NCBI RefSeq assembly: GCF_028368995.1
Contig: NZ_JAQNDL010000001.1
Coordinates: 2,624,001-2,688,000 of the forward strand
Direction: 5' to 3'
DNA length: 64,000 nucleotides
Source of the DNA: Nannocystis bainbridge
GTDB taxonomy: Bacteria > Myxococcota_A > Polyangia > Nannocystales > Nannocystaceae
The notes under the pieces were generated by a model that made no database searches, was not told the origin of the DNA, and worked only from the letters and a program-made list of their open reading frames with translations. Below are positions 4,328 through 63,716 of the stretch, in pieces (position 1 is the first letter of the stretch; every line of letters begins with the position of its first letter). Both the position numbers and the translations under genes were made by a program.

Positions 4328-4389
4328 TGTCCCCGGGGACATCCTCCGACGGAGTTATGGAAATTTGCTTGGGCCTGTCCCGAAGGACA
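4328..4389. repeat. Two perfect TGTCC-N4-GGACA palindromes
   Basis: TGTCCCCGGGGACA 4328-4341 and TGTCCCGAAGGACA 4376-4389 in a convergent gap. Confidence 0.9.
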
Positions 4390-4503
4390 GGCCCATGGCG
4401 GCTGCCAGGCTCGACCGCACGACCGAGCGCGTCACCTTCCGCGCAGGACGCGGACTCCGCCGTCCGCGCATTCACGGACTGCGTGCTCACGCGGGCGAGC
4501 GGC

Positions 4504-4968
4504 TCAGATCATCGGCCGGTTGGGAGCGGCGGGCAGCTGCTCGAGCATCCGCTCCAGGCGCGTCAGGTGGTCCTGAGAGTGGTCGAGCAGGCCCTGGATC
4601 TCCCGCAGGATGTCGGCGTCCAGCTGCGGGTCCGACAGCAGCTTGGCGTAGCCCTCGTAGCCGACGACTTCGCCGCGGTGCAGCACGCGCAGCGGGACCT
4701 CGTCGTTGACGATCGAGGCCAGGCGCTCGAGGCCGGTCGTCAGCGAGCCCCAGGCGCCCGAGCTCTCGGGCTCGAGCCCGCCGTGCTGGCGGATGATCGC
4801 GCCGAGCCGGTTGACCGCGCTGACGTGGTCCTCGCGCAGGCGGACCAGCTCGGCCTCCTCATTTTGACCGGCGAACTTCTGCAGCGCGCGGTCGTAAGCT
4901 TCGATCGCGGACAGCTCGCCGCGGTATTGCGACATGAGCGAGTCCATGAGCGGCTTGGATAGTGCCAT
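4504..4968 (-). CDS. Ferritin-like DUF2383/PA2169-family protein
   Basis: MALSKPL..YRGELSAIEAYDRAL..LREDH..L..GG..ESSGAWG..LHRGE..YAKLL four-helix pattern; the upstream part of the listed ORF looks non-coding. Confidence 0.8.
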   Translation of the reverse strand: MALSKPLMDSLMSQYRGELSAIEAYDRALQKFAGQNEEAELVRLREDHVSAVNRLGAIIRQHGGLEPESSGAWGSLTTGLERLASIVNDEVPLRVLHRGEVVGYEGYAKLLSDPQLDADILREIQGLLDHSQDHLTRLERMLEQLPAAPNRPMI

Positions 4969-5088
4969 GGGCGGGTCCTCCGAACGCAACCGTGACCGAC
5001 GACACCGCGCTGTCAAGCGCCCGGGCAGCGGCCCCGGCGCCGCCAGCGGACGCGACCGTGGCGCGAACGGCTGGCGCGGCGGCGCGGA

Positions 5089-5130
5089 TGTCTCTTTGCA
5101 CATGTCCTCACGGACATGCCTCTTGGGACA
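5089..5130. repeat. Three-unit 14-bp array of the TGTCC-N4-GGACA family
   Basis: TGTCTCTTTGCACA / TGTCCTCACGGACA / TGCCTCTTGGGACA. Confidence 0.85.
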
Positions 5131-5388
5131 TCCAGGAGCACGAGCGCCCCGCGCGTGGCCGCGCCGAGCCGGACGCGTCACTGGGGCGACTGGCCCGGTG
5201 GCGGCCTCGGCTTCACACTGAACGGGATGGAGGCGCTCTTGGCCATGCTGCTGATGCCGCTGCTGCTGGTGGCGCCGCTGGGCGAGGCGCTCGAGCGGCG
5301 GCGCGACCGGCTGCACGACCGTGAGGTCGAGCGGGCCTGGGGCCAGACCTGGATGCGGGTGCACGGGCCGCGCGCGTGGGCCTTCGGC

Positions 5389-6186
5389 TCAGGGTGCTGC
5401 AGGCTTCACGAAGCGCACCACGAAGCGATCGGCCGTGCCGCGCTTCCCCGCCGCCGCCGCGGCCGTCGGCGCCGCGTTCCAGTCGCGCGGGTCGTCCGGG
5501 TTGCGGAGAAATTCCGCCGACCCCGCGCGCTCGAAACCCGCCTGTAGCACCTCGTCGACGACCGTCGACTCCTCGACGCGGTGCAGCGACTCGGCCTCGC
5601 CGGCGCCCGCCCCTGCGCGCGCGCTGTGATCGACGATGACGTAGAACCCGCCGGGGCGCAGCGCGGCGAAGATGGCCTGGTTCATGCGCGCGCGGTCGGT
5701 GCCCATCCAGAAGGTGTCGTGATAGAAGAGCACGTTGATCACGCCGTCGAGCTCGCGGGCCTCGGACGGCAGCGGATCGTCGAACTCGCGGTCGACGCGG
5801 ACCACGTTGCGCAGCTCCGGCGTCGCCAGCCGCTCGGTCCACGCCGGCTCCACGAACCGCGTCGTCACGAATTTGTTGTTCTGCGCATACACCACGCCGT
5901 CAGGCCCGACCGCACGCGCCAGCAAGAAGGTGGTGTAGCCGCGCCCCGCACCGAGGTCGGCGAGCCGCATGCCCGGGCGCAGGGCCAGGAACCGCAGCAG
6001 CTCCTCGGGCCTCCGCCCCGCGTCGAGCTCCCGCTCCGCGGGCGGCCGGGCCGGGTCCTCGACGATCGCCCGGATCGCCGCGTCGTCGAGCCCGGGGCCC
6101 GCGTCGGGCGCCCGGATCACGGCCGGCTCGGCTGCCGGATGGCAGGCAATCAGCGCGAGGAGGAGGAGCGCGGCGCGGCGGAGCAT
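5389..6186 (-). CDS. Class I SAM-dependent methyltransferase, predicted lipoprotein
   Basis: Lipobox LIAC; R-P-E-L-F pattern, LADLGAGRGYTT, FYHD, LRPGGFYVIVDH, LHRV, LRNPDDPR, DRFV. Confidence 0.88.
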   Translation of the reverse strand: MLRRAALLLLALIACHPAAEPAVIRAPDAGPGLDDAAIRAIVEDPARPPAERELDAGRRPEELLRFLALRPGMRLADLGAGRGYTTFLLARAVGPDGVVYAQNNKFVTTRFVEPAWTERLATPELRNVVRVDREFDDPLPSEARELDGVINVLFYHDTFWMGTDRARMNQAIFAALRPGGFYVIVDHSARAGAGAGEAESLHRVEESTVVDEVLQAGFERAGSAEFLRNPDDPRDWNAAPTAAAAAGKRGTADRFVVRFVKPAAP

Positions 6187-6709
6187 CGCGCGCAACCTAG
6201 CACCGCGCGCGCACGCGGTCACAATTGTCGCGCGCGTGAGCCCCGGCCCGGGGGCTCACAGCGGCATGCGACAACCGATCGCCACGGCCAGGACCGCGGT
6301 GACGGCGATCACGATCGCCAACCTCCGCAGCACCCGGCCGCGCGAACAAAAGAACATGTCCGAAGGGACACCCACGGCTCTGCGCGGGAGATCGACCCCG
6401 GAGGTCCTGCCGGCAGAAATTTCCGGGGCCTTCACCAGCCGCCGCGCTCGGCCGGCCGACCTGCGCGGCTCACCGCGGCATGTCCCCAGGGACATGTTCG
6501 ATCGACCCCGTGGAGGACCGGCGCCTGAGGACCGACGACGAGCGAGCGCGCGCACCCCCGGCAACGCGCGACGCGGGGGCGGCCATTCCCCGGGCGGCCT
6601 CCGGGTCCGCGTGGTCTCACGCCCGCCGGGACGACGCGCGGGGACGCGGACGTGCGAAGCTCCGCGCGTGCCTGGCCTGCCCGTCTGGACCCGCCTCTGC
6701 CCTGTCGAC

Positions 6710-8380
6710 GTGTTGCGTCACCCGGTCATCGCCGGCGTCGCCGAGCTGCTGGCCGGCCAGGACGTGCAGGCCGCGCTGCACGAGGGTCAGCGCGCGGGCA
6801 CCTACCCCACCGATGTCGTCGCCGCGCTGCGGCGGATCGGCGTCGCTCGCCTTTTCACCGACGAGGCCGAGGTGTTCCACCTCTGCGGCCTCAACGCGAT
6901 CGCGGCGGCCGTCGACGGTTCGCTGGCGATCACCCTCGGCGTCAACGCCCTCGCGCTGTTGCCCGTGCACCTCGGCGCCAGCCCCGAGCTGCGCGCCCGC
7001 ACCTTCAAAAAGATCAACGACGGCGCGTTCGCGGCGATGCTGCTGACCGAGCTCGATCACGGCTCCAACCTGCTGCGCAACGAGGCCGCCGCCGCGCCGC
7101 ACCCCGAGGGCGGCTACCGCCTGACCGGCGAGAAGCACCTCATCAACGGCGCCACCCGCCACGACGTGCTCGTCTCGTTGATGCGGACCGCCCGCGGCGG
7201 CGCGGTCGCGTTCGGCGACTTCTCGGTGTTCTGCGTCGACCGCGACGACAGCGTCGAGGCCCTGCCGCGCTGGTCGACCCTGCCGGCGCGCGCGGCCGAC
7301 ATCGCCGGGGTCCGGTTCCACGGCACACATGTCCCCGAGGACAGCCTCGTCGGCAAGCTCGGCGACGGCTTCAGCCTGGTCCAGCGCACCCTCACCCTGT
7401 CGCGCGGCGGGATCAGCGGGCTCGCGTCCGGCTGCGCCTCGGGGGCGCTGGCGCTGGCGCTGCACTACGCCCACACCCGCGACGTCTACGGCGCCCCGAT
7501 CGTCGGCCTCGACGCGATCGCCGATCACCTCGTCGTGCACGCCGAGCTCGACCTCGTCGCCGCGGCGATGGCGGTCAAGGCCGCGGTGGCCGCCAACGCG
7601 CTCGGCATCGGCGCGGCGATCTACACCGCCGCGGCCAAGCTGGCCTGCTGCGCCCTGGCCGAGGAGGCGGTCGAGCAGGGCCGCCGCGTCGTCTCGAGTC
7701 GCGCGCTGCTGGCCGATCGCCCTTATGAGAAGTTCGTCCGCGACGTCACCCTCTACGGGGTGTTCGACGGCACCAGCCACCTGATGCTGACCGACCTGAG
7801 CCTGCGCCTGCCGCAGATCGTCAAGGCCCGCGACGAGGTCGAGCCGACGCTGCCGCGGGTCGCCGCGATGTTCGCCGCGCCCCCGCGTCCGCTCGCGGCG
7901 CTCGGCGACGCGCGTGCCCCGGTGCGTCACCTCGATCTTTCGGCCCATGCCCGGGCCCTCGACGCGATCGACGGCGGCGTCGGCTTCACCGCCTTCGTCG
8001 CCCTCGCCGACGCCGTCGTCGCCCTCGGCCGCGGCCTCCGCGGGCACAAGGCGTGGAACGACCAGGGCGTGCGGTTCGCCCTCGCCGAGGCGCTGGCGTG
8101 GATCGAGTGCGCCTTCGCCACGGCCGAGCTGGCCGACCCGGCCCGGCGCGCGGCCCTCGGCGCGCCCGCCTTGCCTTCGGGACAGGCTGTCCCGCGGGAC
8201 ATCCTCGTCGGCGCCCTCGCCGGCCTCGGCCTGCGCGCCCGCGCCCGCCTGCTCGAGGTCACCGCGCTCGCCGGCCTGCCTGTCCCGACGGACATGTCGC
8301 AGGTCGAGGCCGACCTCGTGGCCGCCCGCGCCGCCGCCCGCCCGGGCGCGCGCGCGTGGGTCCGCGCCCTGACCCCGTGA
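6710..8380 (+). CDS. Acyl-CoA dehydrogenase family protein
   Basis: LLTELDHGSN, YRLTGEKHLING, LVGKLGDGF, R-VYGAPI, VRD--LYGVFDGT; start placed at GTG 6710. Confidence 0.88.
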   Translation: MLRHPVIAGVAELLAGQDVQAALHEGQRAGTYPTDVVAALRRIGVARLFTDEAEVFHLCGLNAIAAAVDGSLAITLGVNALALLPVHLGASPELRARTFKKINDGAFAAMLLTELDHGSNLLRNEAAAAPHPEGGYRLTGEKHLINGATRHDVLVSLMRTARGGAVAFGDFSVFCVDRDDSVEALPRWSTLPARAADIAGVRFHGTHVPEDSLVGKLGDGFSLVQRTLTLSRGGISGLASGCASGALALALHYAHTRDVYGAPIVGLDAIADHLVVHAELDLVAAAMAVKAAVAANALGIGAAIYTAAAKLACCALAEEAVEQGRRVVSSRALLADRPYEKFVRDVTLYGVFDGTSHLMLTDLSLRLPQIVKARDEVEPTLPRVAAMFAAPPRPLAALGDARAPVRHLDLSAHARALDAIDGGVGFTAFVALADAVVALGRGLRGHKAWNDQGVRFALAEALAWIECAFATAELADPARRAALGAPALPSGQAVPRDILVGALAGLGLRARARLLEVTALAGLPVPTDMSQVEADLVAARAAARPGARAWVRALTP

Positions 8381-8602
8381 CGCCGCTCGCGGCCTCGGGC
8401 TGACCTGTCCCTGCGGACAGCTACCACTGCGCTCCCGCGCCGCCCTCCCGCGCGATCGGCCCCGCCGCCCTGCGCACACTGTGCGGCCCCTCGGGTTAGC
8501 TGTCGCTATTCCGGTGTGACTTCCATGAAGCGACTGAGCGACTGCTGCCGCGGCCTGCGACGGCGCGGCCGTCCGGCCCGTGGTAGCGTCGTCGCCGCGA
8601 CG

Positions 8603-9535
8603 ATGCACTACCGACTCGAGCACCGGCGGCCCATCGACACCGCGATCGCGCAGCTGCGCTTCTCGCCCGACGGCGAGCGCCTGGCGCTGCTGACCGGCGA
8701 CAAGAAGAACAGCGTGCAGCTGCTGCAGTGCAGCGACCTCGCGCCGCTCGGGGCCCCGCGCTTCCTCCGTCACGACCTCGCCTTCGCCGGCGACGGCGCG
8801 CTGTTCGTCGCCGGTAAGACCATCCAGCGCCACGAGCTCGCCGAGGCCGGCGTCGGCAAGGCGACCCTCTCGATCGACGGCGACAAGAAGGGCCTCACGC
8901 AGATCGCCGCCTCGCCCGACGGCCGCTGGCTGGCGCTGCACAAGCACCTCGACGATCTCGAGCTGTGGTACCTCGGCGATGCGCAGCCGACCCGGCGCGC
9001 CAGCGTGCGCGCCAGCGTGCTCGTCGAGCTCGGCTTCCGGCCCGACAGCGGCCAGCTATGGTTCACCAGCCGGGTCTCGAGCCCGCTCCAGCTGCAGACG
9101 ATCGACCTCGATCCGGCCGGCTCCGATCTACGACCGACGCCGATCCGGCCGCTGCCCGGGGTGTTCGTCTACAGCCCCGTGCGCGCGGCCCCGGGCGGCC
9201 TCGTGGCCGTGAGCGACCAGCACGCCGACCTCGTGCTGCTCGAATGGGGCGCCGCCGAGCCGCGCCCGCTCGGCCTGCGCGCGCTGTGGGGCGACCGCTT
9301 CCCCGAGGACCTGGCCGTCTCGCCCGACGGCAGCCACGTCGCAGTCACCGCCCGCGACTCCGACACCCACCTGCGCGTCAGCGCGGCCGCCCTCGCCGGC
9401 GACGCCGAGCCGTTCACGTTCCGCTGGGAGGGCCGGACCACCAGCACCGCGGTGGCCCTGACCGCCGGCGGCGCCCGCCTGGCCGTGGCCCGCCGCACCT
9501 CGCCGAGCACGCTCTACATGTTTTTAAAGACATGA
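8603..9535 (+). CDS. WD40/beta-propeller repeat protein
   Basis: Repeated LRFSPDGERLA, IAASPDGRWLA, LGFRPDSGQL, LAVSPDGSHVA blades. Confidence 0.8.
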   Translation: MHYRLEHRRPIDTAIAQLRFSPDGERLALLTGDKKNSVQLLQCSDLAPLGAPRFLRHDLAFAGDGALFVAGKTIQRHELAEAGVGKATLSIDGDKKGLTQIAASPDGRWLALHKHLDDLELWYLGDAQPTRRASVRASVLVELGFRPDSGQLWFTSRVSSPLQLQTIDLDPAGSDLRPTPIRPLPGVFVYSPVRAAPGGLVAVSDQHADLVLLEWGAAEPRPLGLRALWGDRFPEDLAVSPDGSHVAVTARDSDTHLRVSAAALAGDAEPFTFRWEGRTTSTAVALTAGGARLAVARRTSPSTLYMFLKT

Positions 9536-9588
9536 CCCAAAGGACAGGGTCATTACGACATGTTTTCGAGAACATGTCCTGACAGACA
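9519..9588. repeat. Five-unit 14-bp phased array
   Basis: TGTTTTTAAAGACA / TGACCCAAAGGACA / GGGTCATTACGACA / TGTTTTCGAGAACA / TGTCCTGACAGACA between convergent genes; overlaps the last codons of the upstream gene. Confidence 0.85.
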
Positions 9589-9600
9589 CTCTTCAAATCA

Positions 9601-11046: not shown

Positions 11047-11079
11047 GACACCAGCCTACCTCGCCGCGGCGGGTGGGAC

Positions 11080-11168
11080 CAGCACAGCCCGGCCGGCGCC
11101 CGGCCGGCACAGTTGCAGCGAACTGCAACTGTACCGGTACCATCTCGGTCCTTCTGCATCTGTTACGG
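11080..11168. promoter_or_regulatory. Probable MocR operator region in the divergent promoter
   Basis: Recurrent CACAG/ACTGT/CTGTACCGGTAC/TCTGT elements, including the inverted repeat ACAGTTGCAG-CGAA-CTGCAACTGT (11109-11132). Confidence 0.5.
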
Positions 11169-11195
11169 TCGGGGTCGCCGGCCCATGCTGTGGCC

Positions 11196-12140
11196 ATGGC
11201 TTCCTCCTCCGGCGTCTGGATCGCCCCGCCCGTGCGGATCGCCTGGGACCGGGCCGCCGCCTCCGCGACCCGCCCGGCGCGCGCGAGGCCGCCGATGATG
11301 ATCGTCGCGGCGATGCTCGCGGTGTATTTCCTGTGGGGCTCGACCTACCTGGCGATCCGCGTCGCGCTCGAGACGATCCCGCCGTTCTCGCTCGGGGCCA
11401 TGCGGTTCCTGATCGCCGGCGGCGGGCTCTACGCGGCGCTGCGCCTGTTCGGCGCGCCCAAGCCGACCGCCGCCGAGTGGCGCACCTCGTTCCTCACCGG
11501 CGCGCTGCTGTTCGTGGCCGGCAACGGCTTCGTGGTGCTCGGCGAGCAGTGGGTCAGCTCCGGCCTGGTCGCGCTGGTGGTCGGGACCATGCCGCTGTGG
11601 GCCGCCCTGTTCGGCCGCGCCGCCGGGCAGCCGCCGACCACCCGCGAGTGGCTGGGCCTCGGCCTCGGCTTCGCCGGCGTCGCCATCCTTCAGCTCGGCG
11701 GCGAGCTCGCGGGCGCCGGCCTCGGCGCGCTGCTGGTCCTGCTCGCCCCGGTCTGCTGGGCCCTCGGCGTGGTCCTCGGCCGCTCTCGCCCGCTGCCGGC
11801 CGGGCCGATGGCCGCCGCCACCCAGATGCTGGCCGGCGGCGTGATGATGGCCGGCATCGCCGCCCTGCTGGGCGAGGCACCGGCTGTCCCTTCGGCCAGG
11901 TCCATGGCGGCCGTGCTCCACCTGGTCGTCAGCGGCTCGCTGATCGGCTTCACCGCCTACGGCTACCTGCTGCGCCGGACCCGGCCCGCCGTCGCCAACA
12001 GCTACGCCTACGTCAACCCGGTGGTCGCCATCGTGCTCGGCGCCGCTCTGGCCAGCGAGCCGGTCGGCCCGCTGACCTGGCTGGCGACCGCGGTGATCCT
12101 GTCCGGCGTGGTCGTCATCGGCCTCGGCGGCAAGCGCTGA
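11196..12140 (+). CDS. yedA: DMT/EamA drug-metabolite exporter, YedA-like
   Basis: VYFLWGSTYLAIR, RFLIAGG, GSLIGFTAYGYLL, SYAYVNPVVA; divergent from the MocR regulator. Confidence 0.88.
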   Translation: MASSSGVWIAPPVRIAWDRAAASATRPARARPPMMIVAAMLAVYFLWGSTYLAIRVALETIPPFSLGAMRFLIAGGGLYAALRLFGAPKPTAAEWRTSFLTGALLFVAGNGFVVLGEQWVSSGLVALVVGTMPLWAALFGRAAGQPPTTREWLGLGLGFAGVAILQLGGELAGAGLGALLVLLAPVCWALGVVLGRSRPLPAGPMAAATQMLAGGVMMAGIAALLGEAPAVPSARSMAAVLHLVVSGSLIGFTAYGYLLRRTRPAVANSYAYVNPVVAIVLGAALASEPVGPLTWLATAVILSGVVVIGLGGKR

Positions 12141-12144
12141 TGCA

Positions 12145-12192
12145 TGTCCTTCAGGGCATGTCCTCGAGGACATGCCACCTCGGGGCCATGTC
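12145..12192. repeat. 14-bp phased array (2-3 units)
   Basis: TGTCCTTCAGGGCA / TGTCCTCGAGGACA / degenerate unit; CATG at 12143, 12157, 12171; convergent gap. Confidence 0.85.
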
Positions 12193-12194
12193 TT

Positions 12195-12602
12195 TCAGCT
12201 CCGCGGCCCGTCGTAAACCTGGACGCTGACGCGGATCTGCCCCGAGTTGTCCTCGTGGTTCGAGTCCCAATAATAAAACAGCAGCGTGCCCTCGGTCAGG
12301 ATCGTCATGCTCAGGTGGGTGCCGACGCCGAAGAACGTGGCGCCGCCGTCGAGGCTGCCGACCAGCGCGCCGTACAAGAACGCCTGGGCGCCGCGGCCGA
12401 ACAGCCCGTAGTCGCCGCCCAGCGGGTTGCCGAGGCCGTTCGCGTTCGAGGTCCGGTCGGCCACGCCGGCGCTCCACGTGTCCTCGGGATCGACGTGGAT
12501 CACCAGCAGCTGCCCCGGCGACAGCGCGATCGCGGTGTCGAGGGCGGCCCCGCCCGAGATGCTGTGCTTCCTCGCGTCCACCACGAATGCGCCCTGCGCC
12601 AT
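12195..12602 (-). CDS. LecA/PA-IL-like beta-sandwich lectin
   Basis: 135 aa; DTxIxL..GQ..W....ANG, YGALVGSL, FxVG, GTLLFYYWDSNHEDNSG. Confidence 0.65.
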   Translation of the reverse strand: MAQGAFVVDARKHSISGGAALDTAIALSPGQLLVIHVDPEDTWSAGVADRTSNANGLGNPLGGDYGLFGRGAQAFLYGALVGSLDGGATFFGVGTHLSMTILTEGTLLFYYWDSNHEDNSGQIRVSVQVYDGPRS

Positions 12603-12776: not shown

Positions 12777-12824
12777 TGTCCCGCAGGACATGTGATGCGC
12801 AGTTACGACCTGTCCCGCGGGACA
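12777..12824. repeat. Two perfect TGTCC-N4-GGACA palindromes
   Basis: 12777-12790 and 12811-12824, just downstream of the hydrolase stop. Confidence 0.9.
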
Positions 12825-12837
12825 GGCCGCCGCGGCG

Positions 12838-13665
12838 TCACGCCGCCTCGTCTTCCAGCAGGCGGAAGTTGCGGCGGGCCAGCTCGAGGTTGTCGTTGTC
12901 CCACGGGTGGAAGCTCGGGCGCAGGTACTCGCGCAGCCCGCGGAGGAACACCCGGCGGATGATCGGCTCGCGCTGCTGCGTCGCTCGCAGCTGGCGCAGC
13001 GCCTCGCGCAGGCTCAGGTCCTTCTCCTGGCGCATCAGCATCACCGCGCCCGCCAGCCAGAACGCCCCCAGCAGCGTCGTCGCCAGCGCCATCCCGGCCA
13101 TCCGCAGCGCATAGCTCGGGCGCACCTGCTTCAGCACGTCGAAGGCCACCGCCTTGTGCTCGATCTCCTCGGCCGCGTGCCAGCGGAGCAGCCGCTGCAT
13201 CTTCGGGTGCACCACCGCCAGCGTGCCCTGGTCCGTCAGCGCCCCCTCGGCCATGATCGCCGTGTAGTGCTCGAGCGCCGCCGTCACCGACAGGCGCAGC
13301 GCCGGCGGGCTGATGCGCTCGATGAAGTCGAACGCCACGCGCTTGTACACCCGCAGGAACGTGTCGATGTCGTAGCCCTGGCCGCGCAAGATCTCGAACA
13401 CGCGCTCGTGCTCGTGCGCGTGGCGGCCCTCCTGGCCGAAGAACCCGCGGATCTGCTCGCGCAGCGTCGGGTCGTCGATCGCGCCCATGTAGTGGCGGAC
13501 GGCCCGCACGAAGAAGCGCTCGCCCATCGGGAAGATCAGGTGCAGCGCGTTGCCGATGGCCGTCGACACCGGCAGCCCGGCCATCCAGTGGCGCGGCAGA
13601 TCGTCGAGGTCGAATTCCATCGCTCGCGGCTTGATGGGTCCCAGGTCGGCGGGGGCGTGCTGCAT
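12838..13665 (-). CDS. Predicted metal-dependent hydrolase (COG3687-type)
   Basis: FPMGERFFVRAV, FFGQEGRHAHEH, ALEHYTA, WHAAEEIEHKAVAFDV. Confidence 0.9.
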   Translation of the reverse strand: MQHAPADLGPIKPRAMEFDLDDLPRHWMAGLPVSTAIGNALHLIFPMGERFFVRAVRHYMGAIDDPTLREQIRGFFGQEGRHAHEHERVFEILRGQGYDIDTFLRVYKRVAFDFIERISPPALRLSVTAALEHYTAIMAEGALTDQGTLAVVHPKMQRLLRWHAAEEIEHKAVAFDVLKQVRPSYALRMAGMALATTLLGAFWLAGAVMLMRQEKDLSLREALRQLRATQQREPIIRRVFLRGLREYLRPSFHPWDNDNLELARRNFRLLEDEAA

Positions 13666-13782
13666 CGAGAACCTCCTGTGCGCATCGAGCGTACCGCCTA
13701 TTGAATCAGAGTCAATAGCCGCTCGGAACCCTCTGTGGCGGGTCTCAGCGCCCCCGTCACAGCACAGCGCGCGAAACCGCCC

Positions 13783-15168
13783 TCAGTCGTCGAAGGTCGG
13801 ATGCACGATCCACAGGCTCGGCCAGAGCGACGGTTCGACCCGCGCGAGGTCGACGGACGGATCGATCATCAACTGCGGCCTGCGCCCGTTGAGCGACACC
13901 AGCGCGACCACGCGGACCTCGATCGCCGCGTGCCCGCGCGCCCGCAGGTCGTCGGCGAGGAAGCGGGCGTACTGCAGGATCATCTCTGGCCGGCCGCTCA
14001 TCTCCTGGCGCTGCCAGCCCGGCAGACGTCCGGCCAGGTCGATCTTCCACGACGCGCCGAGCTCGGGATCACTGGCGAAGAAGCGGACGTAGCCGTTCTT
14101 GTCGCGCAGCTTCATGCGCCACGCGAACTTGTGGCCCTCCTCGGTCCACGCCACGTCGCCCGGATAAAGCCAGTGGCGCAGCGGGAACAGCAGCTGCCAG
14201 CCGACATAAAGCCCCAGGGCCACCAGCGTCGCCCGCTGCGCGCGCCCGAGGTGAGCCGGCGGACCGGCGACGATCGGCGCCGGCGACGGCGGCGCGCCGA
14301 CGCGGGCCGCGACGCGGTTCCACAGCCGGCGCGGCCAGTCCGGTTCGAAGAAGATCGTGGTCGCCGCGATCATCACCCACGGGAAGATGCCGATCGAGAA
14401 CACCGCCGCGTTGATCAGGTGGAAGCTCAGCGCCAGCACGTAGGCGAGCGCGCGCGTCGGTCGCCACAGCAGCGCCGGCACCACCAGCAGATCGAACCCG
14501 AGCCCGCCCCAGCTGAAGAAGTACGGCGCCCACCACTCGCGCAGCAGCGGCCCGGCGAGCGGCAGGTCGGCGCTCTCGGCCAGCCACGTGCGCATCGGCT
14601 CGCCGCGCAGCCAGTCGGGGTTCAGCTTGGCCAGCCCGGCGTAGAAGTACGGGATCCCGATCTGCGCCCGCAGCAGCCACAGCGCCCACGCCGGGGCCGT
14701 ATCGGCGCGCAGCCGCGGCCGCAGCCAGGCGTCGACCGACGCGGCCCGGTGCGCCGGCACGAACATCATCAAGAAGCTGACCAGCGCCAGCAGATAGATG
14801 TGATTGAGGTAACAGCTCTGCTCGAGCAGGAACACGTACGAGATGCCGACGAAGAACACCGCCGCGGCCGTGCGGTACCACAGCCCGATCGTCACGCACA
14901 GCGCCGCCAGCCCGAGCACCCCGAACACCACGTGCATGCCGTCGCCGGCGAGCGGCCGCACCCAGTCGAGGGCGAAGAACGTGAAGTGGAACTCCGGCTC
15001 GATGTAGAGCGGGCCGATGTCGGGCAGGTCGCGCCACACCTCGACGAACATCAGGAGGCCGAACAGCACCCGGAAGCACGCCAGCGAGGCGATGTCGACG
15101 GTGGCGAACAGCCGGCGCGAGGCGAGCGGCAACAGCGAGGCGACGGGCCTGGGCATGGCCGGCGGCAT
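13783..15168 (-). CDS. HTTM-domain vitamin K-dependent gamma-carboxylase-like protein
   Basis: DIASLACFRVLFG, YLNHIYL, YFYAGLAKLNPDW, FHLIN..F.IGIFP, WTEEGHKFAWRMKL, P-MILQYA, SLNGR..Q.MIDP.VDL. Confidence 0.9.
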   Translation of the reverse strand: MPPAMPRPVASLLPLASRRLFATVDIASLACFRVLFGLLMFVEVWRDLPDIGPLYIEPEFHFTFFALDWVRPLAGDGMHVVFGVLGLAALCVTIGLWYRTAAAVFFVGISYVFLLEQSCYLNHIYLLALVSFLMMFVPAHRAASVDAWLRPRLRADTAPAWALWLLRAQIGIPYFYAGLAKLNPDWLRGEPMRTWLAESADLPLAGPLLREWWAPYFFSWGGLGFDLLVVPALLWRPTRALAYVLALSFHLINAAVFSIGIFPWVMIAATTIFFEPDWPRRLWNRVAARVGAPPSPAPIVAGPPAHLGRAQRATLVALGLYVGWQLLFPLRHWLYPGDVAWTEEGHKFAWRMKLRDKNGYVRFFASDPELGASWKIDLAGRLPGWQRQEMSGRPEMILQYARFLADDLRARGHAAIEVRVVALVSLNGRRPQLMIDPSVDLARVEPSLWPSLWIVHPTFDD

Positions 15169-15403
15169 AGCGCCGATCGTCGGCGACGCAGCCCGCCCGC
15201 TCCGCGCCCGCCCTCGCGCGCGTACATCCTCGCCTTCGCGCCCGCGCGAGCTGCCCGGCGGGGCCGCCATCCGAGCGAGCGTCCGCCGAATGCTCGCTCG
15301 CCTGGTGCCATGATTCGCGACTGAGCCCGCTTGATGCCGCCCTCGACCCGACGCATAGAAGCTACCGGTCCGCCACTGGCAAATGGGTGGAGGAGGAGTT
15401 GTC

Positions 15404-18623: not shown

Positions 18624-18637
18624 TGTCCATCAGGACA
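18624..18637. repeat. Perfect TGTCC-N4-GGACA palindrome (extended ATATGTCC-ATCA-GGACATAT)
   Basis: Seen directly, downstream of the ABC transporter stop. Confidence 0.9.
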
Positions 18638-25537: not shown

Positions 25538-25584
25538 TGTCCCTCGGGACATGCCCGCTCGGGCATGTCCATGAGGACATGTCC
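25538..25584. repeat. 14-bp phased array (3.5 units)
   Basis: TGTCCCTCGGGACA / TGCCCGCTCGGGCA / TGTCCATGAGGACA / TGTCC between convergent stops. Confidence 0.9.
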
Positions 25585-25591
25585 CGCGGCG

Positions 25592-26636: not shown

Positions 26637-26984
26637 TGTCTCGGAGAACATGTCTCCCGGGACATGTTATTCGCGCGCCGCCCTGGCGCACGCGCGCGCG
26701 CGCGCTCGCCTGTACGCACGAGCAGCGACCTCGATGCACATGTCTCTCGGGACATGTCTCGCGCGCCGTCCTGGCGCACGCGTGCGCGACCGGACGCACG
26801 AGCAGGCGACCTCGATGCACCTGTCTCTCGGGACATATGACTCGCGCGCCATCCTGGCGCTCTCGCGCCATCCTCGCGCACGCGTGCGCGCTCCATCCAC
26901 ATGTCTCTCGGGACATCCACCCCTGGCGCTCGAGCACCTCGCGTCTCGCCGCGCGCCTCGCCTTGCGACCTGTCCCCGAGGACA
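26637..26984. repeat. Intergenic 70-90-bp tandem repeat, each unit carrying TGTCY-N4-GGACA
   Basis: Cores at 26651, 26741, 26822, 26902, 26971; shared flanks GCGACCTCGATGCAC and TCGCGCGCC..CCTGGCGC. Confidence 0.85.
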
Positions 26985-28562: not shown

Positions 28563-29074
28563 CCCTCGCGCTCGCTGCGTCGCAACATGTCCATCGGGAC
28601 ATCTGCAACGATTCCCGTGCGCGACCTGGTGCGCCGGCGAATAAACCAGCGCTCGCCGTTGGGAAGAATGGATGCACCGGCACCCGATGTCATCCTTCGG
28701 CCTCACTGTCAGTTCCTCTCCCACGCGCGAATCACCGCCCGAGAGCGCCCGGCTCGCGAAAGCGCGTGGTCACGAGCCTCGGATCTCGAAAGATCCGCGC
28801 GCGTGGCCCCGCATCGTTCATCGCAGAAAAGGTGACGAGAGCGGCCGGTTCGCGCCAGGAGTCGCATGCACCGTTACTCCGGCCGCTCTCGTCGGGAGCG
28901 TGTGGCCCACCGTGTCCCGGAGGACAGCGGTGGCCACCTTCGAATCCTTGCACGAAGGGGACGAGACGCGGCGAGCTCGCAAGGAGGTCCTGGTCAAGCG
29001 AGCTCGCCGCGCTCATCGAAGGGGGTCGGGCCAGCCAGCGGCGATCGCGGCCGGGCCCGCAGTCGGTCCTGCGA

Positions 29075-34029: not shown

Positions 34030-34099
34030 TGTCCCTCGGAGCATGCCCTCCAGGACATGCCCCGGAGAGCATGTCCGCCAGGGCATGTCCCCGCGGCCA
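34030..34099. repeat. Five-unit 14-bp phased array
   Basis: TGTCCCTCGGAGCA / TGCCCTCCAGGACA / TGCCCCGGAGAGCA / TGTCCGCCAGGGCA / TGTCCCCGCGGCCA fills almost the whole convergent gap. Confidence 0.9.
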
Positions 34100-39323: not shown

Positions 39324-39410
39324 TGGCGCTCACGATATGTCCGCAAGCACATGTCCCTTCGCACAGCCATGGACCTGCCGCGGAGAGCTCGTCACATGTC
39401 TCTCGGGACA
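39324..39410. repeat. Degenerate 14-bp array plus a single unit
   Basis: TGTCCGCAAGCACA / TGTCCCTTCGCACA (39338-39365) and TGTCTCTCGGGACA (39397-39410), downstream of the kinase stop. Confidence 0.75.
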
Positions 39411-44806: not shown

Positions 44807-46426
44807 ATGTCCCGAAGAACTCTTCTGCTCCCGCTCTTGCTCGCCGCCTGCTTCGAAGAGGTGTGGAAGGAAGGCTCGGACAAGTTCCCGGACACCGACA
44901 GCGGCGGCGCCTCGGGCACCTCGACGACCACGCTCGTCCCCGGCGGCGACGCGAGCAGCGGCACGCAGACGGTCACGAGCGAACCGCCGACCACGCTCGG
45001 GACGGCCGAGCCGTCGAGCACGACCACGGGCGCCCTCGAGAACGAGCCGCCGCAGATCATCAGCCTCCAGCTCGAGCCCGCCAGCCTCGACCAGGCCGGC
45101 GACGCGGAGGTGCTCGCGGTCGTCAGCAGCGATGTCGTGAAGCTGCGGCTCGAGGTCGACGACGAACAGGTCTGGACCGGCAAGCCCGCCGAGTTCGCGT
45201 GGACCTTCACGGCCACCTCGAAGGCCGCGTCGCAGGGCAAGCACTCGTTCGTGCTGTACGCCGAGGACGACGAGGGCCTCTCGGCCATGAAGTCGACGAC
45301 GCTGTGGGTGATGCTGCCCGAGACCGGCGCCGAGAAGTGTGAGTTCGAGGAGCCGAGCCACGACGGCTGGCTGACGGCCACGGCCTACGGCGCCGACGCG
45401 CTGATCGTCGCCGGCACGCTGGTGACCTCGCAGCTCGAGGCGACGCTGTGGCGCCTCGATCCGGAGTCGTGCGCACCGCAGGCCGGCTTCCCCCGCCAGA
45501 TCTCCCAGTGGACCGCGCTCGTCGAGGACTGGGAGCCCTCGCAAGCCGTCGGCGTGGCGATCGACGACGCCGGCCGCACGGCCCTCGCCGCCAACATCGG
45601 CGACGGCCTCGACCGCAGACCATACGTCGCAGTGTTCGCGCCCGACGGCGAACTCCTGGGCGAGCACCTCGGCAAGGAAGTAGGCGATACGTACAGCGGC
45701 ATCACGGCCGTGCCCGACGGTTTTTTCGTGGTCGGCGACACCCGCGTGAGCACCAACCCCCTGCGCTACGACGGCCTCATCGAGGGCTTCGACGCGGCGG
45801 GGTCGAAGATCTGGCACGACACGATCGCAGCGCCTCTGCCCGGCGACGACTGGAACGATCAATTCAATGTCTTCGACGAACACCCGCGCGCGGTGGTCTG
45901 GTCCGACGACCTGGACGCGCTGATCGTGGTCGGCGAGCGCGCTGTCCTGGAGGACAAGGACCCGCGGCAACGAGCCTTCTCGATCCAGTACACGCTCAAA
46001 GACGGGCTCGTGGAAGCCTGGACTTCCAGCGGCCTCGACGCTCCCCAGGACGGCCTCGTCGCTGTCACGGTCTGCGGAGACGAATGGGTGGCGGGCGGCT
46101 GGATTCAGGAGGATCAGAACCCGCGGTCCCCCGCAGCTCGCTGGCTCGGCCCGACAGGGAACGGGGGTGCCAAGCGGCGCCTGGATCCGCTCAAGGGCGC
46201 GACCTTCCACGGGTTGGCTTGCGACCGTGAGAACAAGTTCACCACCGCAGCCAGCACGGGCGTCAACGCCTCCGTGCTCGGTTTCCGGTCGAGTGACGAT
46301 CCCTTCCTTTTCAAGCAGGACTTCGGCCAGGCAGCGTTGACTGCGGCCGATTGCGACTCTCGCGGTTTCTGTGCCGTTGCAGGCGCACGCGGGGCGCGTG
46401 CCTGGGTGCGCGTGCACCACCCGTGA
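44807..46426 (+). CDS. Lipoprotein family A, copy 2
   Basis: MSRRTLLL..LAAC; paralogue of 41811-43430. Confidence 0.85.
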   Translation: MSRRTLLLPLLLAACFEEVWKEGSDKFPDTDSGGASGTSTTTLVPGGDASSGTQTVTSEPPTTLGTAEPSSTTTGALENEPPQIISLQLEPASLDQAGDAEVLAVVSSDVVKLRLEVDDEQVWTGKPAEFAWTFTATSKAASQGKHSFVLYAEDDEGLSAMKSTTLWVMLPETGAEKCEFEEPSHDGWLTATAYGADALIVAGTLVTSQLEATLWRLDPESCAPQAGFPRQISQWTALVEDWEPSQAVGVAIDDAGRTALAANIGDGLDRRPYVAVFAPDGELLGEHLGKEVGDTYSGITAVPDGFFVVGDTRVSTNPLRYDGLIEGFDAAGSKIWHDTIAAPLPGDDWNDQFNVFDEHPRAVVWSDDLDALIVVGERAVLEDKDPRQRAFSIQYTLKDGLVEAWTSSGLDAPQDGLVAVTVCGDEWVAGGWIQEDQNPRSPAARWLGPTGNGGAKRRLDPLKGATFHGLACDRENKFTTAASTGVNASVLGFRSSDDPFLFKQDFGQAALTAADCDSRGFCAVAGARGARAWVRVHHP

Positions 46427-50904: not shown

Positions 50905-51804
50905 GTGAAGGACCACCTCGGCGAGCTCGCGGCGCTCGGCACGGCCGTGTGCTGGGCGCTCGGCTCGCTCGCCTTCACGCGGGCCGGGCGGCGGATCGGC
51001 AGCTTGCCGCTCAACGTCATCCGCATGGCGCTCGCGCTGGTGTTCGCCGCGGTCGCCGGCCTCGCGCTGCGCGGGCGGGCCCTGCCGACCGACGCGACGG
51101 CGGACCAGTGGTGGTGGCTGGGGCTGTCCGGCTTCGTCGGCTATTTCCTCGGCGACCTGTGTCAGTTCCGGGCGTTCATCGAGATCGGTCCGCGCCTGAC
51201 GCTGCTGCTCATGGCGCTCGCTCCGCCGCTGACGGCCGTGATCGATTTCGCGGTGCTCGGCCAGCGGCTCGCCCCACTGTCGCTGACGGGCATGGCGATC
51301 ACCCTCGCGGGTGTCGCTTGGGTCCTGTCCGAAAGGACACCCGCAGGGGCGACGCCGGGGCCGGCCACGCCGCGGTTGCGGGGGATCTTGCTCGGGCTCG
51401 GGGGCGCGCTCGGGCAGGCGGTGGGGCTGGTGCTGAGCAAGCGCGGGATGGTCGGCTGCGAGCCGCTGGCGGGGGCGCAGATCCGGATGCTCGTCGGGCT
51501 CGGCTGCTTCGTCGCCCTGGTGCTGGCGACCTCGACCACGCCGCGCCTGCGAGCCGCCCTGCGCGACCGCGGCGCCCTCGGCTACGCCACCATCGGCGCG
51601 CTGCTCGGCCCCTTCCTCGGCGTCTCGCTGGCCCTGTTCGCGCTCCAGCGCACCTCCGCCGGGGTCGCAGCCAGCCTGCTCAGCACCTCGCCGATCTTCA
51701 TCATCCCGCTGGCCGCGCGCCTCGAGGGCGAGCGCGTCGGCGTGCGCGGGCTGCTCGGGGCCGTGGTCGCGGTCACCGGCGTGGCCCTGCTGTTCGCCGG
51801 CTGA
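50905..51804 (+). CDS. DMT/EamA family transporter
   Basis: GELAALGTAVCWA, SGFVGYFLGD, about ten TM segments. Confidence 0.92.
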   Translation: MKDHLGELAALGTAVCWALGSLAFTRAGRRIGSLPLNVIRMALALVFAAVAGLALRGRALPTDATADQWWWLGLSGFVGYFLGDLCQFRAFIEIGPRLTLLLMALAPPLTAVIDFAVLGQRLAPLSLTGMAITLAGVAWVLSERTPAGATPGPATPRLRGILLGLGGALGQAVGLVLSKRGMVGCEPLAGAQIRMLVGLGCFVALVLATSTTPRLRAALRDRGALGYATIGALLGPFLGVSLALFALQRTSAGVAASLLSTSPIFIIPLAARLEGERVGVRGLLGAVVAVTGVALLFAG

Positions 51805-52533: not shown

Positions 52534-52617
52534 TGTGCTCCGGGACATGTCCGCCAGGGCATGTCTGAACGGGCATGGTTGATCGGGCATGTCCGAGAGG
52601 ACATGCCCGATGGTTCA
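52534..52617. repeat. Six-unit 14-bp phased array
   Basis: CATG at 52546, 52560, 52574, 52588, 52602; two more units at 52668-52695; convergent gap. Confidence 0.9.
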
Positions 52618-58777: not shown

Positions 58778-58833
58778 TGTCCCGCAGGACATGCCCCATC
58801 AAGCATGTCCTCGACGCCATGTCCCCCAGGACA
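58778..58833. repeat. Four-unit 14-bp phased array
   Basis: TGTCCCGCAGGACA / TGCCCCATCAAGCA / TGTCCTCGACGCCA / TGTCCCCCAGGACA; convergent gap. Confidence 0.9.
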
Positions 58834-58842
58834 TGCCCCTTA

Positions 58843-60363: not shown

Positions 60364-60406
60364 GACGGCAGGATAACCCGAGCCGCCCGCCGCCCGCACG
60401 CGGCGC

Positions 60407-61582: not shown

Positions 61583-61727
61583 AGCCCAGGTCTCTCTCCC
61601 GCGATTCGGACCCGGGCGGCCCCCCGCCCGCCGTGTCACGGAAGCTCGGCCGCACCCGAGGCGCGCCGCCGCCGCCGGGCGCCGCGCTCGCCAGCAGCGC
61701 TGGAGCCCGGGCGCCGTGCTCGCCGCG

Positions 61728-63038
61728 TCAGCGCTGGAACGCGTAGACCGAGCCGAGCGCCAGCAGCTGCGTCAGCGCGTCGAGGGCCGTCTGGACCTCG
61801 CGCAGCAGCTGTGGGTCGGCCAGGTCGTCGGGCGTGAGGCGGTCGCGGTAGTGCTTCTCGACCCAGGCGACCAGCGCCGCCTCGAGCGCGTCGTCGACGA
61901 TCACCCGCCCGCCGAGCGCCGCCTCCTCGCGCTCGTCGAGCGGCACCCGCAGGCGCAGCGACGCCGGGCCGCCGCCGTGGCGCAGCGCCGGCCGCAGGTC
62001 GACCTCGCGGATCTGGGCCACGTGGCCGTCGGCCACCAGGCGATCGAGGTAGCCGCGGGCCGCCGCGTTCTCGCGGCTCTCGGCGGCCACCAGCAGACCG
62101 AGCTGTCCGTCGGGACAGGTGTAGAACTGCCCGCCGAACACGCTGCTGCCGACCGCGTCCTGCAGCGGCAGGTCGGCGGCGCGGGCCAGCGCGACCTGCA
62201 GCGCCGAGCCGAGCCGCCGCCGCAGCTCGGTCAGCACGTTGCCGACGTCGCGCAGCGCCAGCTCGTGGATCAGCAGCAGCGAGCCGTGAGCCAGCGCCAG
62301 CGTGTCCGAGTGCGAGGCGCCACCGTCGAGGCCGTCCGGGTGCTGCTGCGGGAACAGCACCCGCGCCGGGTCGAGCTGCAGCAGCCGCACCTGCGCCTGC
62401 GAGGCCTCGACCGTCTGCCGCGCCGGGAACCGCGAGGCCGCGTGGCGGGCGTACGCACCGCGGCCCCACGCGAACACGTGGACCGCCGGCCGCTCGCCGA
62501 CCTGCAGCCGCAGCGTGTTGGCCGCGCCCTCGTCGCCGAGCTGGTGCACCGCCGGCAGCGCCGCGTGCACGGCGAAGCGCGCCTCGTCGCGGAAGATCGC
62601 CGACAGCACCGAGTGGGTCGTCTCGGCCTCCTGCGCGCGGTGCAGCATGTGCTGCAGGTTGGCGACGACGATGTGCACGCGGCCGTCGCGCGTGTCGCTG
62701 CTCGGCGCCACCGTCGCCGCGTTGGCGGCCCACATCGACGACGGGTTGCTGCACAGGCGCAGCCACATGCCGTCGCCCTCGGCCGCGGCGCGCAGGACCC
62801 GCTCGTCGTCGCCGGTGAAGCCGATCCGGCGCAGCCAGTCGACGTTCGGCCGCGGCTGCGGCGGCAGCACCGCCTGCTTGAGCCCGAGCGAGCGGGCCAG
62901 CCGGATCTTCGCCAGACCGGCGAGCGCCGCCGCTTTCGGGTTGGTGGTCGAGCCGGCGCGCTGACTCGGCGCGACGCCGGCGGCGAGCCCATCGTTGTAG
63001 GTCGGCCCGATCAGCCCGTCGAAGTTGACCTCGCCCAT
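61728..63038 (-). CDS. astB: N-succinylarginine dihydrolase homologue (catalytic Cys replaced by Ser)
   Basis: EVNFDGLIGPT, MWAANAATV, DEGAAN, FPARQT.EAS, QQHP, GGGPASLRLRV, YRDRL, LGSVY.FQ. Confidence 0.88.
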   Translation of the reverse strand: MGEVNFDGLIGPTYNDGLAAGVAPSQRAGSTTNPKAAALAGLAKIRLARSLGLKQAVLPPQPRPNVDWLRRIGFTGDDERVLRAAAEGDGMWLRLCSNPSSMWAANAATVAPSSDTRDGRVHIVVANLQHMLHRAQEAETTHSVLSAIFRDEARFAVHAALPAVHQLGDEGAANTLRLQVGERPAVHVFAWGRGAYARHAASRFPARQTVEASQAQVRLLQLDPARVLFPQQHPDGLDGGASHSDTLALAHGSLLLIHELALRDVGNVLTELRRRLGSALQVALARAADLPLQDAVGSSVFGGQFYTCPDGQLGLLVAAESRENAAARGYLDRLVADGHVAQIREVDLRPALRHGGGPASLRLRVPLDEREEAALGGRVIVDDALEAALVAWVEKHYRDRLTPDDLADPQLLREVQTALDALTQLLALGSVYAFQR

Positions 63039-63108
63039 GCCCTCGCGGTTTTGGCACCACCCGGGGCCGTGGCGCAAGCGCCGGCGCGCGCGGTATAGTG
63101 GCCGCGCG

Positions 63109-63615
63109 TTGACGCAGCTCGGCAGCATCTTCGAACCCGAGGCGCCCGGACCCCGCGGCCGCGACCTCCACGCCGACGTCACGGTCCCCGCCTGGGCGCT
63201 CGGCCTCCCCTTCCCGTTCGAGGTCCGCGTCCCGCTCGACCTGGCCGCCGAGGGCGGATACGCGCGCCGCACCGTGTCCTCGCTCGACAGCGACGACCGC
63301 GTGCGCCTGTCGCTGCCTGCCGACTTCCCCACCGGCGGGGTCCTGCGCCTGCGCGGCCAGGGCGAGGCGCTCGACGGCGGCCGCCCCGGCGATCTCCTGG
63401 TCCACGTCGAGGTCGACCCGCGCCGCGGCGAACCGCCGCCCGAGGTCAAGCTGGCCCTGGCGGCGATGCCGAGCCCCGCGCCGCCCGCCGCCGCCGACGA
63501 GGCCACCGCCCTCGCCTACCGCCTGCCGGCCCAGAGCCCCGCGCTCGACGCCAACACCCTGACCTGGATGGCCGCCCTGCTGGCCCTGGTCGCCGCGGCG
63601 ATGATGTTCGGCTGA
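63109..63615 (+). CDS. DnaJ C-terminal-domain protein with C-terminal TM anchor, no J domain
   Basis: RGRDLHADV, LP....G.VLRLRGQG...GGRPGDLLVHV; TATAGT upstream of the TTG. Confidence 0.72.
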   Translation: MTQLGSIFEPEAPGPRGRDLHADVTVPAWALGLPFPFEVRVPLDLAAEGGYARRTVSSLDSDDRVRLSLPADFPTGGVLRLRGQGEALDGGRPGDLLVHVEVDPRRGEPPPEVKLALAAMPSPAPPAAADEATALAYRLPAQSPALDANTLTWMAALLALVAAAMMFG

Positions 63616-63618
63616 GCC

Positions 63619-63716
63619 TGGCGGCCAGGACATGTCTTCAGGCGCATGTCCTCGGGGACATGGCGCCGAGGACATTCCCCATGCGACATGTCCCGAGCGA
63701 CCTGTCGCAAGCGACA
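63619..63716. repeat. Seven-unit 14-bp phased array
   Basis: Units start at 63619, 63633, 63647, 63661, 63675, 63689, 63703; convergent gap. Confidence 0.9.

Follow-up and report, generated by a model that had tools for sequence, protein, structure and literature searches.

What is the short palindrome TGTCC-N4-GGACA, which recurs throughout a stretch of the genome of the myxobacterium Nannocystis bainbridge? The stretch, termed the window below, comprises 64,000 nucleotides (G000:C1:2624001-2688000). G000 is the 11.05-Mb assembly of this organism, which has a G+C content of 71.5% and consists of five contigs. An earlier note, made from the letters of the window, had listed copies of the palindrome and proposed that it is the binding site of an abundant, lineage-specific nucleoid or termination factor. 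Our analysis indicates that the window samples a genome-wide family of conserved 14-bp units, which accumulate behind stop codons. We give an even chance to the reading that the unit is a selected double-stranded-DNA site of a two-fold symmetric (homodimeric), sequence-specific protein that would bind cooperatively to arrays, a reading based on sequence comparisons.

All 24 perfect copies listed in the earlier note lie exactly at the coordinates given there, and a 25th copy, at 45943, had been missed. In 100 dinucleotide-preserving shuffles of the window the mean number of perfect copies is 0.04 and the largest is 1. The dozens of near copies that had also been claimed are borne out by 45 matches with at most one mismatch, compared to 1.48 expected. 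The enrichment extends well beyond the window. In the entire genome (11 Mb) there are 1987 perfect copies with the N4 spacer, but only 0-16 for each of the spacers N0-N3 and N5-N12 (N3 16, N5 5, N6 3). Among all 1024 palindromes that consist of a 5-mer, N4 and the reverse complement, TGTCC-N4-GGACA is the most frequent, and it alone shows a hundred-fold excess over its N3, N5 and N6 versions. One-mismatch units number 4258 versus 137-267 in five spacer controls, and two-mismatch units 7530 versus 2615-4617 in the spacer controls. We therefore estimate that there are roughly 10,000 real units in the genome, about one per kilobase, with some 8000 degenerate units above background besides the perfect copies. 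Perfect copies are present on all five contigs, at 151-225 per Mb, and no restriction of the units to ori or ter was found over these contigs.

The spacer was described in the earlier note as fixed in length and free in sequence. Its length is indeed 4 bp throughout, and its sequence is nearly free, apart from a symmetric Y-Y-R-R bias. Beyond the unit the logo is weak, with R-C-(A/C) on the left and (T/G)-G-Y on the right. By itself the pentamer TGTCC/GGACA is barely enriched (23769 observed, 20505 expected), and 5222 of the 7160 occurrences of CATGTCC have a partner with at most two mismatches. The pentamer was therefore rejected as an uptake-type word, since only the dimeric N4 arrangement is strongly enriched.

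The units occur singly or as gapless head-to-tail arrays with a 14-bp period and up to eight units. The earlier note had missed these arrays, together with the palindrome GGACATGTCC that forms at the junction of two abutting units and the roughly 40% of units that are intragenic. The register is strict: 3736 CATG-to-CATG distances measure 14 bp, compared to 72 at 13 bp and 262 at 15 bp, and the multiples 28, 42 and 56 bp are represented 2073, 1586 and 751 times. In-phase chaining yields 5637 arrays with 7853 units, namely 4102 singles, 1100 doubles, 289 triples, and 75, 49, 17, 3 and 2 arrays of four, five, six, seven and eight units, respectively. Within the window, Tandem Repeats Finder (TRF) detects period-14 repeats at 12142-12198, 52557-52593, 58778-58839 and 63628-63716. 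The 10-bp palindrome GGACATGTCC, which occurs 956 times in the genome, was considered as the true unit and rejected. Merely 33 of its 956 occurrences lack a partner half-site on both sides, whereas 493 of the 1987 N4 units stand without a recognisable adjacent half-site. This identifies the N4 palindrome as the basic unit. Identical duplications of recent origin are seen among the arrays, as exemplified by eight near-identical units at C3:1085845, and units also ride in minisatellites, which have periods of 36 and 48 bp elsewhere in the genome and of 80-90 bp in the window. The 36-bp and 48-bp minisatellites are located at C2:1217543-1217800 and C2:2323868-2324100, respectively. Each of their repeats contains one perfect unit, and the spacers are near-identical, which suggests recent amplification.

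A survey of related genomes shows that the signal is found genus-wide and is not restricted to the window or to one genome, as expected from the earlier proposal that it is lineage-specific. All 10 genomes of the same genus contain 114-2090 copies (controls, 1-6). Two other genera of the family, represented by one genome each, contain 87 and 161 copies, the remaining 12 genera 1-7 copies, and 16 genomes of other families in the class 0-8 copies. None of 250 further genomes of the phylum, which cover 178 genera, has more than 14 copies. The array signature CATG-N10-CATG is found 2842-3736 times in five large same-genus genomes and 116-169 times in three small, fragmented ones; in two sister genera the counts are 203-339 and 88-415. 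Only the genus and, less densely, two sister genera show hyper-abundance. A lineage-specific D12 methyltransferase was considered as well and rejected: a D12-class gene is found in genera of the family both with and without the motif, and it is therefore uninformative.

Conservation was determined for 1.15 Mb of contig C1, of which 87% could be aligned to the syntenic region of a congener (G005). Sixty of the 69 perfect coding copies were aligned, and their orthologs are perfect in 43 cases, have one mismatch in 11, two mismatches in two and at least four in one, and carry an indel in three. Based on the flank identity (0.857 to the tenth power), only about 13 of the 60 would be expected to be perfect. 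At third codon positions (224 aligned of the 252 coding units with at most one mismatch) the identity is 0.935 for the core (n=832), 0.811 for the flanks (n=3941) and 0.699 for the spacer (n=256); for singles only, the spacer shows 0.758 and the flanks 0.820. Outside genes, 67 of 151 perfect copies were aligned and 27 of them are still perfect in the ortholog, compared to about three expected. For single non-coding units the identities are 0.885 in the core, 0.759 in the flanks and 0.731 in the spacer, and the outer TG/CA is the most conserved part between species (0.87-0.93 in non-coding units). Hypermutability of the spacer was rejected as a candidate feature. Its identity of 0.56-0.60 over all non-coding units is partly an artefact of arrays aligned out of register, and the similar spacer and flank values of single units therefore allow no firm claim. 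At the locus downstream of hpaB, which we compared in five genomes (that of N. bainbridge and four named Nannocystis), each genome has an array at this position, in which the CATG cores are invariant and the spacers diverge. Judged from these alignments, the 10 core bases are under purifying selection, at synonymous sites too.

Conservation alone would also be compatible with biased repair. Repair biased to the word is one form of a wider alternative, according to which the motif is a non-functional by-product; the other is a selfish micro-repeat that spreads via a mobile or slippage mechanism. The recent identical duplications and the units inside minisatellites would fit such an origin, and so would the finding that the unit number in arrays differs between species. 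However, the core is conserved far above flanking and synonymous sites and the spacer is not. Moreover, inserting 14 bp into a gene would disrupt its reading frame, and yet 613 perfect copies are located 300 nt or more inside open reading frames (ORFs), with a frame bias of 363/186/64 that favours xxT-GTC-Cnn-nnG-GAC-Axx. We compared 427 orthologous spacers: both genomes carry a unit in 92 and neither does in 279, while occupancy is limited to G000 in 33 and to G005 in 23. For 23 spacers, one of the genomes has a unit and the other has none, even if two mismatches are allowed. The alignments of nine of these 23 were read; they contain no clean insertion or target duplication and show point decay or gain, or replacement of the whole spacer. 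Finally, no gene for a Y1 transposase was found in the genome. We therefore regard a by-product as the most improbable of the explanations considered here.

The unit could alternatively act as a hairpin in RNA or single-stranded DNA, resembling repetitive extragenic palindromes (REPs). Folds in the 3' untranslated region would then stop 3'-to-5' exonucleases or aid termination either way, and a palindrome is functional in both orientations. In line with this, arrays and some singles fold as RNA hairpins of very high stability (-24 to -43 kcal/mol, z -2.7 to -5.0). At least three extra stem pairs are found in 21% of the non-coding copies, compared to 10.8% with shuffled flanks; coding copies show no stem extension over shuffled flanks, and the non-coding excess may in part merely reflect arrays that extend to both sides. 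TGCCC-N4-GGGCA is found 146 times versus about 86 expected from independent halves, which is a small compensatory, or symmetric, excess. The complementarity of the flanks, in contrast, is near chance and speaks against a hairpin, with observed and expected values of 0.54 and 0.45 at -1/+14, 0.40 and 0.45 at -2/+15, and 0.40 and 0.39 at -3/+16.

The variation within the unit, however, is not that of a stem. If the other four pairs are perfect, one-sided variants of the middle pair (1889) are about as common as perfect copies, whereas the second pair (G:C) has 64 variants in all, and the information per position is therefore very unequal. Conservation is best at the outermost TG/CA pairs and poorest at the central pair, although helix stability would demand the reverse. 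Between species, 199 orthologous non-coding units show 120 one-sided, pair-breaking changes but only 13 compensatory doubles, besides 10 other doubles. The hairpin also does not account for intragenic units that are conserved at synonymous sites, and independent hairpins do not need exact 14-bp abutment. In 345 copies oriented by transcription the logo is symmetric, there is no strand asymmetry and no T-run was detected (T 0.07-0.29 at +17 to +38). An intrinsic terminator was therefore rejected, as neither the combination of a GC-rich hairpin with a T-run nor compensation in the stem was found. Searches for known elements point in the same direction: PF01797, the Y1 transposase family that includes the REP-associated tyrosine transposases (RAYTs), has no match in the genome (completeness 90.5%), although the same search matched six of 14 control genomes, and no Rfam family reaches the gathering score anywhere in the window. 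The motif is accordingly not a RAYT-linked REP. Taken together, we consider the hairpin unlikely. The word is read symmetrically, tolerates a defect in one arm, and demands exact spacing and a 14-bp register. The dimeric site suggested in the earlier note fits this pattern of common one-sided mismatches, near-absent compensation and rigid spacing better than a hairpin does.

Canonical terminators of the hairpin-plus-T type are also present, which is a further point against a hairpin role of the motif. In the window, 17999-18044 (-) resembles a canonical intrinsic terminator, with a 20-pair GC-rich hairpin and a T-rich tail, and another such site is found behind a tRNA gene near G000:C1:2431100. 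Thus, the genome also uses ordinary terminators.

Where are the units located relative to genes? ORFs were called with a crude procedure based on G+C at third codon positions (GC3 at least 0.78, longest ORF), which yielded 7047 ORFs covering 81% of the genome; because the longest ORF was taken, ORF starts are over-extended. The 1987 perfect copies divide into 1052 outside ORFs, 934 inside and one at a contig edge. Their density per kb of spacer is 0.95 between convergent genes, 0.49 and 0.45 between co-directional genes and 0.22 between divergent genes. Units with at most one mismatch occupy 51% of the convergent, 24-28% of the co-directional and 16% of the divergent spacers. In co-directional spacers the position-normalised density falls from 5.3 units/kb at 0-20 bp past the stop to about 0.7-1/kb beyond 200 bp. 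Measured from the next start, in contrast, it is flat at about 1.7-2/kb, with about 0.9/kb in the last 40 bp. The units are therefore truly concentrated at gene ends, beyond mere avoidance of promoters. The coding share is 44% for singles and 0-12% for arrays of at least four units.

The earlier note had stated that copies cluster within about 50 bp of stop codons. This is in line with the genome-wide peak and with 13 of the 25 perfect copies in the window, which lie 7-63 bp downstream of a called stop. It does not describe the other copies: six lie inside called ORFs and six in 5' or otherwise ambiguous non-coding DNA. The units and arrays in the window, given without strand, are as follows.

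4328-4341 and 4376-4389: two perfect units, 8 and 56 bp past the stop of a TerB-like gene, 3583-4320 (+), in a convergent spacer; the second lies in a 10-bp stem of a predicted RNA fold.
5103..5116: perfect unit in the 5' part of the longest ORF, 4504-5364 (-); ambiguous context.
6357..6494: two perfect units (6357, 6481) located before the acyl-CoA dehydrogenase domains that ORF 5969-8380 encodes; the Pfam match begins at residue 356, and the units are probably in 5' non-coding DNA.
7330..7343: perfect unit within the coding sequence for acyl-CoA dehydrogenase, located between the parts that encode the middle and C-terminal domains.
8188..8419: three perfect units (8188, 8281, 8406), the first two in the C-terminal tail of ORF 5969-8380, the third 26 bp past its stop.
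9533..9588: two one-mismatch units in a convergent spacer, stops 9535 (+) and 9601 (-).
12142..12198: array of 14-bp period (TRF, 3.9 copies), 5 bp past the stop of an EamA gene, 11073-12140 (+); unit 12145 has one mismatch, 12159 is perfect.
12777..12824: two perfect units behind a metal-hydrolase gene, 12838-13665 (-), at 48 and 14 bp from its stop (12838).
18624..18637: perfect unit behind an FHA-ABC transporter gene (-), 50 bp from its stop (18687).
25538..25591: array filling a 60-bp convergent spacer, stops 25531 (+) and 25592 (-), in the order perfect unit, TGCCC-N4-GGGCA, perfect unit, half unit; RNA fold -41.6 kcal/mol, z -4.95.
26640..26984: four copies of an 80-90-bp tandem repeat (26640-26916), each with one TGTCT-N4-GGACA (26651, 26741, 26822, 26902), then perfect unit 26971; divergent region, upstream of a UbiA gene.
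28588..28601: perfect unit, 26 bp past the stop of ORF 28092-28562 (+).
28913..28926: perfect unit in the convergent spacer that also contains the unit at 28588, 149 bp from the stop (29075) of ORF 29075-29875 (-).
34044..34099: in-phase array of one-mismatch units (34044, 34072, 34086; TRF period 28), 4-59 bp downstream of the stop (34103) of an AcrB-type gene (-).
39338..39410: three one-mismatch units behind a Ser/Thr kinase gene (-), at 24-96 bp from its stop (39434).
45943..45956: perfect unit within ORF 44705-46426 (+).
51326..51339: perfect unit inside an EamA gene, 50905-51804 (+).
52534..52603: in-phase array, 7-76 bp past the stop of a DUF924 gene, 51820-52527 (+), in a convergent spacer; 52534 and 52548 have one mismatch, 52590 is perfect; 13-bp stem in the fold.
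58778..58839: array that includes perfect units 58778 and 58820; its end lies 4 bp downstream of the hpaB (-) stop (58843).
62104..62117: perfect unit within the AstB gene (-), translated as C-P-D-G-Q; three of four orthologous loci have a perfect copy near the corresponding position (coordinate estimate, no alignment).
63628..63716: array of 14-bp period (TRF, 5.1 copies) with perfect unit 63647, in a divergent region between the AstB start and an ORF start at 63646.

Enrichment at 3' ends and convergent junctions would also be expected if the word were a gate-segment site of a type IIA topoisomerase (gyrase or topoisomerase IV), placed where positive supercoils build up. Such an enzyme has two-fold symmetry and cleaves with a 4-bp stagger, so that the free N4 would fall between the scissile bonds; the 5-N4-5 symmetry matches this stagger, a likeness of geometry only. 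The spacer, moreover, is at least as variable as the flanks. According to PMC6379681, gyrase cleavage sites of E. coli are likewise symmetric about a central 4-bp gap; they are enriched downstream of transcribed operons and also over-represented in REPs of the BIME-2 type (bacterial interspersed mosaic elements). The gyrase motif in that account, however, is about 130 bp long, degenerate and indirectly read, rather than a sharp 10-base word, and 14-bp arrays are far shorter than the gyrase footprint. In addition, at least two GyrA/ParC-type genes (2-3 matches) are found in every sampled genome of the family, with or without the motif, and motif-bearing genomes thus have no lineage-specific topoisomerase. 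A topoisomerase site is therefore very improbable in our estimation.

The density of the units depends on the type of DNA in which they are found. When 50-kb bins are ranked by G+C, the lowest tenth contains 12 units per bin and the highest tenth 39 (Spearman 0.53). A unit within 80 bp past the stop is present for 5% of the genes with atypical codon usage but for 43% of those with typical usage. We read these trends as a difference between native and atypical DNA, not as an effect of expression. The codon-adaptation index was rejected as a proxy for expression, as it mainly tracks high-GC3 usage, and the ribosomal-protein reference genes average 0.74. The ribosomal-protein/rpoBC/tuf supercluster (C2:2100800-2134400 of G000, 34 called minus-strand genes) contains five units with at most one mismatch, three intergenic or at an ORF edge, one inside a 493-aa ORF and one between two small ORFs.

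A bias towards native DNA is what a word for self-identity or exchange would produce. Such a word, comparable to the DNA uptake sequences (DUS) and uptake signal sequences (USS) or to the highly iterated palindrome HIP1, would be preferred by uptake, recombination or repair, and would collect at gene ends, where its cost is low. The roughly three-fold lower density in the lowest-GC tenth and the rarity of units after atypical-codon genes fit this idea, as do the lineage specificity of the motif and its presence and conservation in coding and non-coding DNA. HIP1, too, is over-represented and conserved, according to PMC5861425. The idea predicts neither a positive peak behind stops nor phased arrays, however, and the half-site alone is barely enriched. 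Hence, we consider an exchange word quite improbable.

We return to the protein site, our favoured reading. We infer from the symmetry and spacing of the word that one dimer would bind per 14-bp unit, with the centres of the two half-sites 9 bp apart, and that on gapless head-to-tail arrays adjacent dimers would be packed side by side, which would explain the conserved CA|TG junctions. The sites are tolerated and conserved inside genes, and they accumulate and grow to arrays just past stops and between convergent genes. A probable role at gene-end boundaries, as topological or transcriptional insulators or as anchor points of a nucleoid protein, is suggested by the peak close to stops and by the units in 51% of the convergent junctions. 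For weaker sites, the singles conserved inside genes point to a role in the chromosome that is more general. A more specific version of this reading is a gene-end marking system, in which an abundant lineage-specific dimer would coat the phased arrays past stops and act as a bidirectional roadblock terminator or supercoil insulator. This would be a bacterial counterpart of protein-mediated terminators, such as mTERF and Reb1, with some 10,000 selected sites including the weaker intragenic singles. As it stands, we think this version rather unlikely.

Several points speak against a protein site. The stable folds, the stem extension in non-coding DNA and the small symmetric excess described above are among them. 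Moreover, a location close to stops, including the peak at 0-20 bp and the high occupancy of convergent junctions, is also typical of terminators and REPs, and would suit a hairpin too. No binding protein was found or shortlisted, and some 10,000 sites would require a very abundant one. Should the arrays block RNA polymerase, the conserved intragenic copies would be awkward. Finally, all gene positions depend on the crude GC3 and longest-ORF caller, and the conservation data come from one species pair (G000 and G005) plus the one five-species locus.

How does the motif compare to known systems? HIP1 is an iterated cyanobacterial palindrome that is over-represented, found within and between ORFs and conserved beyond neutral expectation; its function is described as unresolved and possibly nucleoid-related (PMC5861425). 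HIP1 has also been tied to orphan methyltransferases. The two are alike in being short, lineage-specific palindromes that are over-represented by two orders of magnitude, and that are found and conserved both in and between ORFs. Unlike the contiguous HIP1 8-mer GCGATCGC, however, the Nannocystis word is interrupted (5-N4-5), is arranged in gapless 14-bp arrays and has its density peak just past stops. It thus shares with HIP1 the over-representation and the conservation within and between ORFs, but not the word itself.

REPs are 20-40 bp long, extragenic and carry a GTAG or CGTC tag, according to PMC3733652. Like REPs and BIMEs, the motif has thousands of copies that are often clustered, hairpin-capable and enriched at 3' ends and convergent junctions. 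Unlike them, it has a 14-bp unit, is intragenic in about 40% of cases and shows no stem compensation, and it is neither accompanied by a PF01797 gene nor strictly extragenic. A GTAG or CGTC tetranucleotide was not found in the flanks of the units, which differ in this from a tagged 20-40-bp palindrome.

The DUS and USS of Neisseriaceae and Pasteurellaceae are asymmetric single words found in genes and, as inverted pairs, behind genes. The Nannocystis motif is likewise a genome-wide, lineage-specific word found in and behind genes; since its half-site is not enriched alone, it is not a DUS. The FNR box TTGAT-N4-ATCAA is a 5-N4-5 operator, and the met-boxes of MetJ are tandem palindromic boxes that are bound cooperatively. 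The motif resembles these in its inverted 5-bp half-sites with four free base pairs and in contiguous boxes of the kind read by rows of dimers. Such operators, however, comprise tens of promoter sites, compared to some 10,000 units here, which are depleted near starts and enriched past stops. The sites of matS, parS, Noc and SlmA number in the tens and are restricted to a chromosomal domain; the roughly 10,000 Nannocystis units are found on five contigs without such a restriction. In its evolutionary behaviour the motif is thus nearest to HIP1 and in its placement nearest to REP/BIME, and it lacks defining features of both. We class it with the highly iterated genomic palindromes. No earlier account of the motif or of GGACATGTCC in bacteria was found in the literature, subscription journals and supplementary files lying outside the search.

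As a well-defined iterated palindrome maintained by selection outside cyanobacteria, the motif provides a second, independent system in which to address the long-standing question of the purpose of such words. It has features that HIP1 lacks, namely the dimer-like interrupted word, the phased arrays and the sharp stop-proximal peak. Motif density is a genus-level signature, which may flag native versus recently acquired DNA and could help to bin Nannocystaceae contigs. If the arrays insulate or terminate transcription, they would also be a native bidirectional part for engineering Nannocystis strains that make natural products.

The gene content of the window, with many Ser/Thr kinases and FHA, PEGA and HTTM domains, fits a myxobacterium, and its HpaB is 94-95% identical to proteins of four named Nannocystis genomes. 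Further regions were noted in the window. An element of about 50-70 bp (8478-8549) covers the start of a WD40-like ORF (8516-9535). It is found at five other places in the genome with 90-98% identity and many times in each of five congeners with up to 94%, and may represent a promoter, leader or signal-peptide start that a set of paralogous genes has in common. The region 43445-49451 contains three ORFs of similar size (385, 372 and 372 aa) that have no Pfam match and an unusually low first-position G+C (0.59-0.60). They are located in the lowest-GC part of the window (0.673), where motif copies are few, and may belong to an acquired island. At 12838-15429, a gene for an HTTM/vitamin-K-dependent gamma-carboxylase-like protein (548 aa, lumenal domain), a eukaryote-like enzyme in a myxobacterium, adjoins that of the predicted metal-dependent hydrolase (PF10118). 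Finally, 29302-29435 and 49253-49330 are short intragenic tandem repeats with 12-/18-bp and 9-/18-bp units (TCGAGGTCG-like), respectively, in ORFs without Pfam match.

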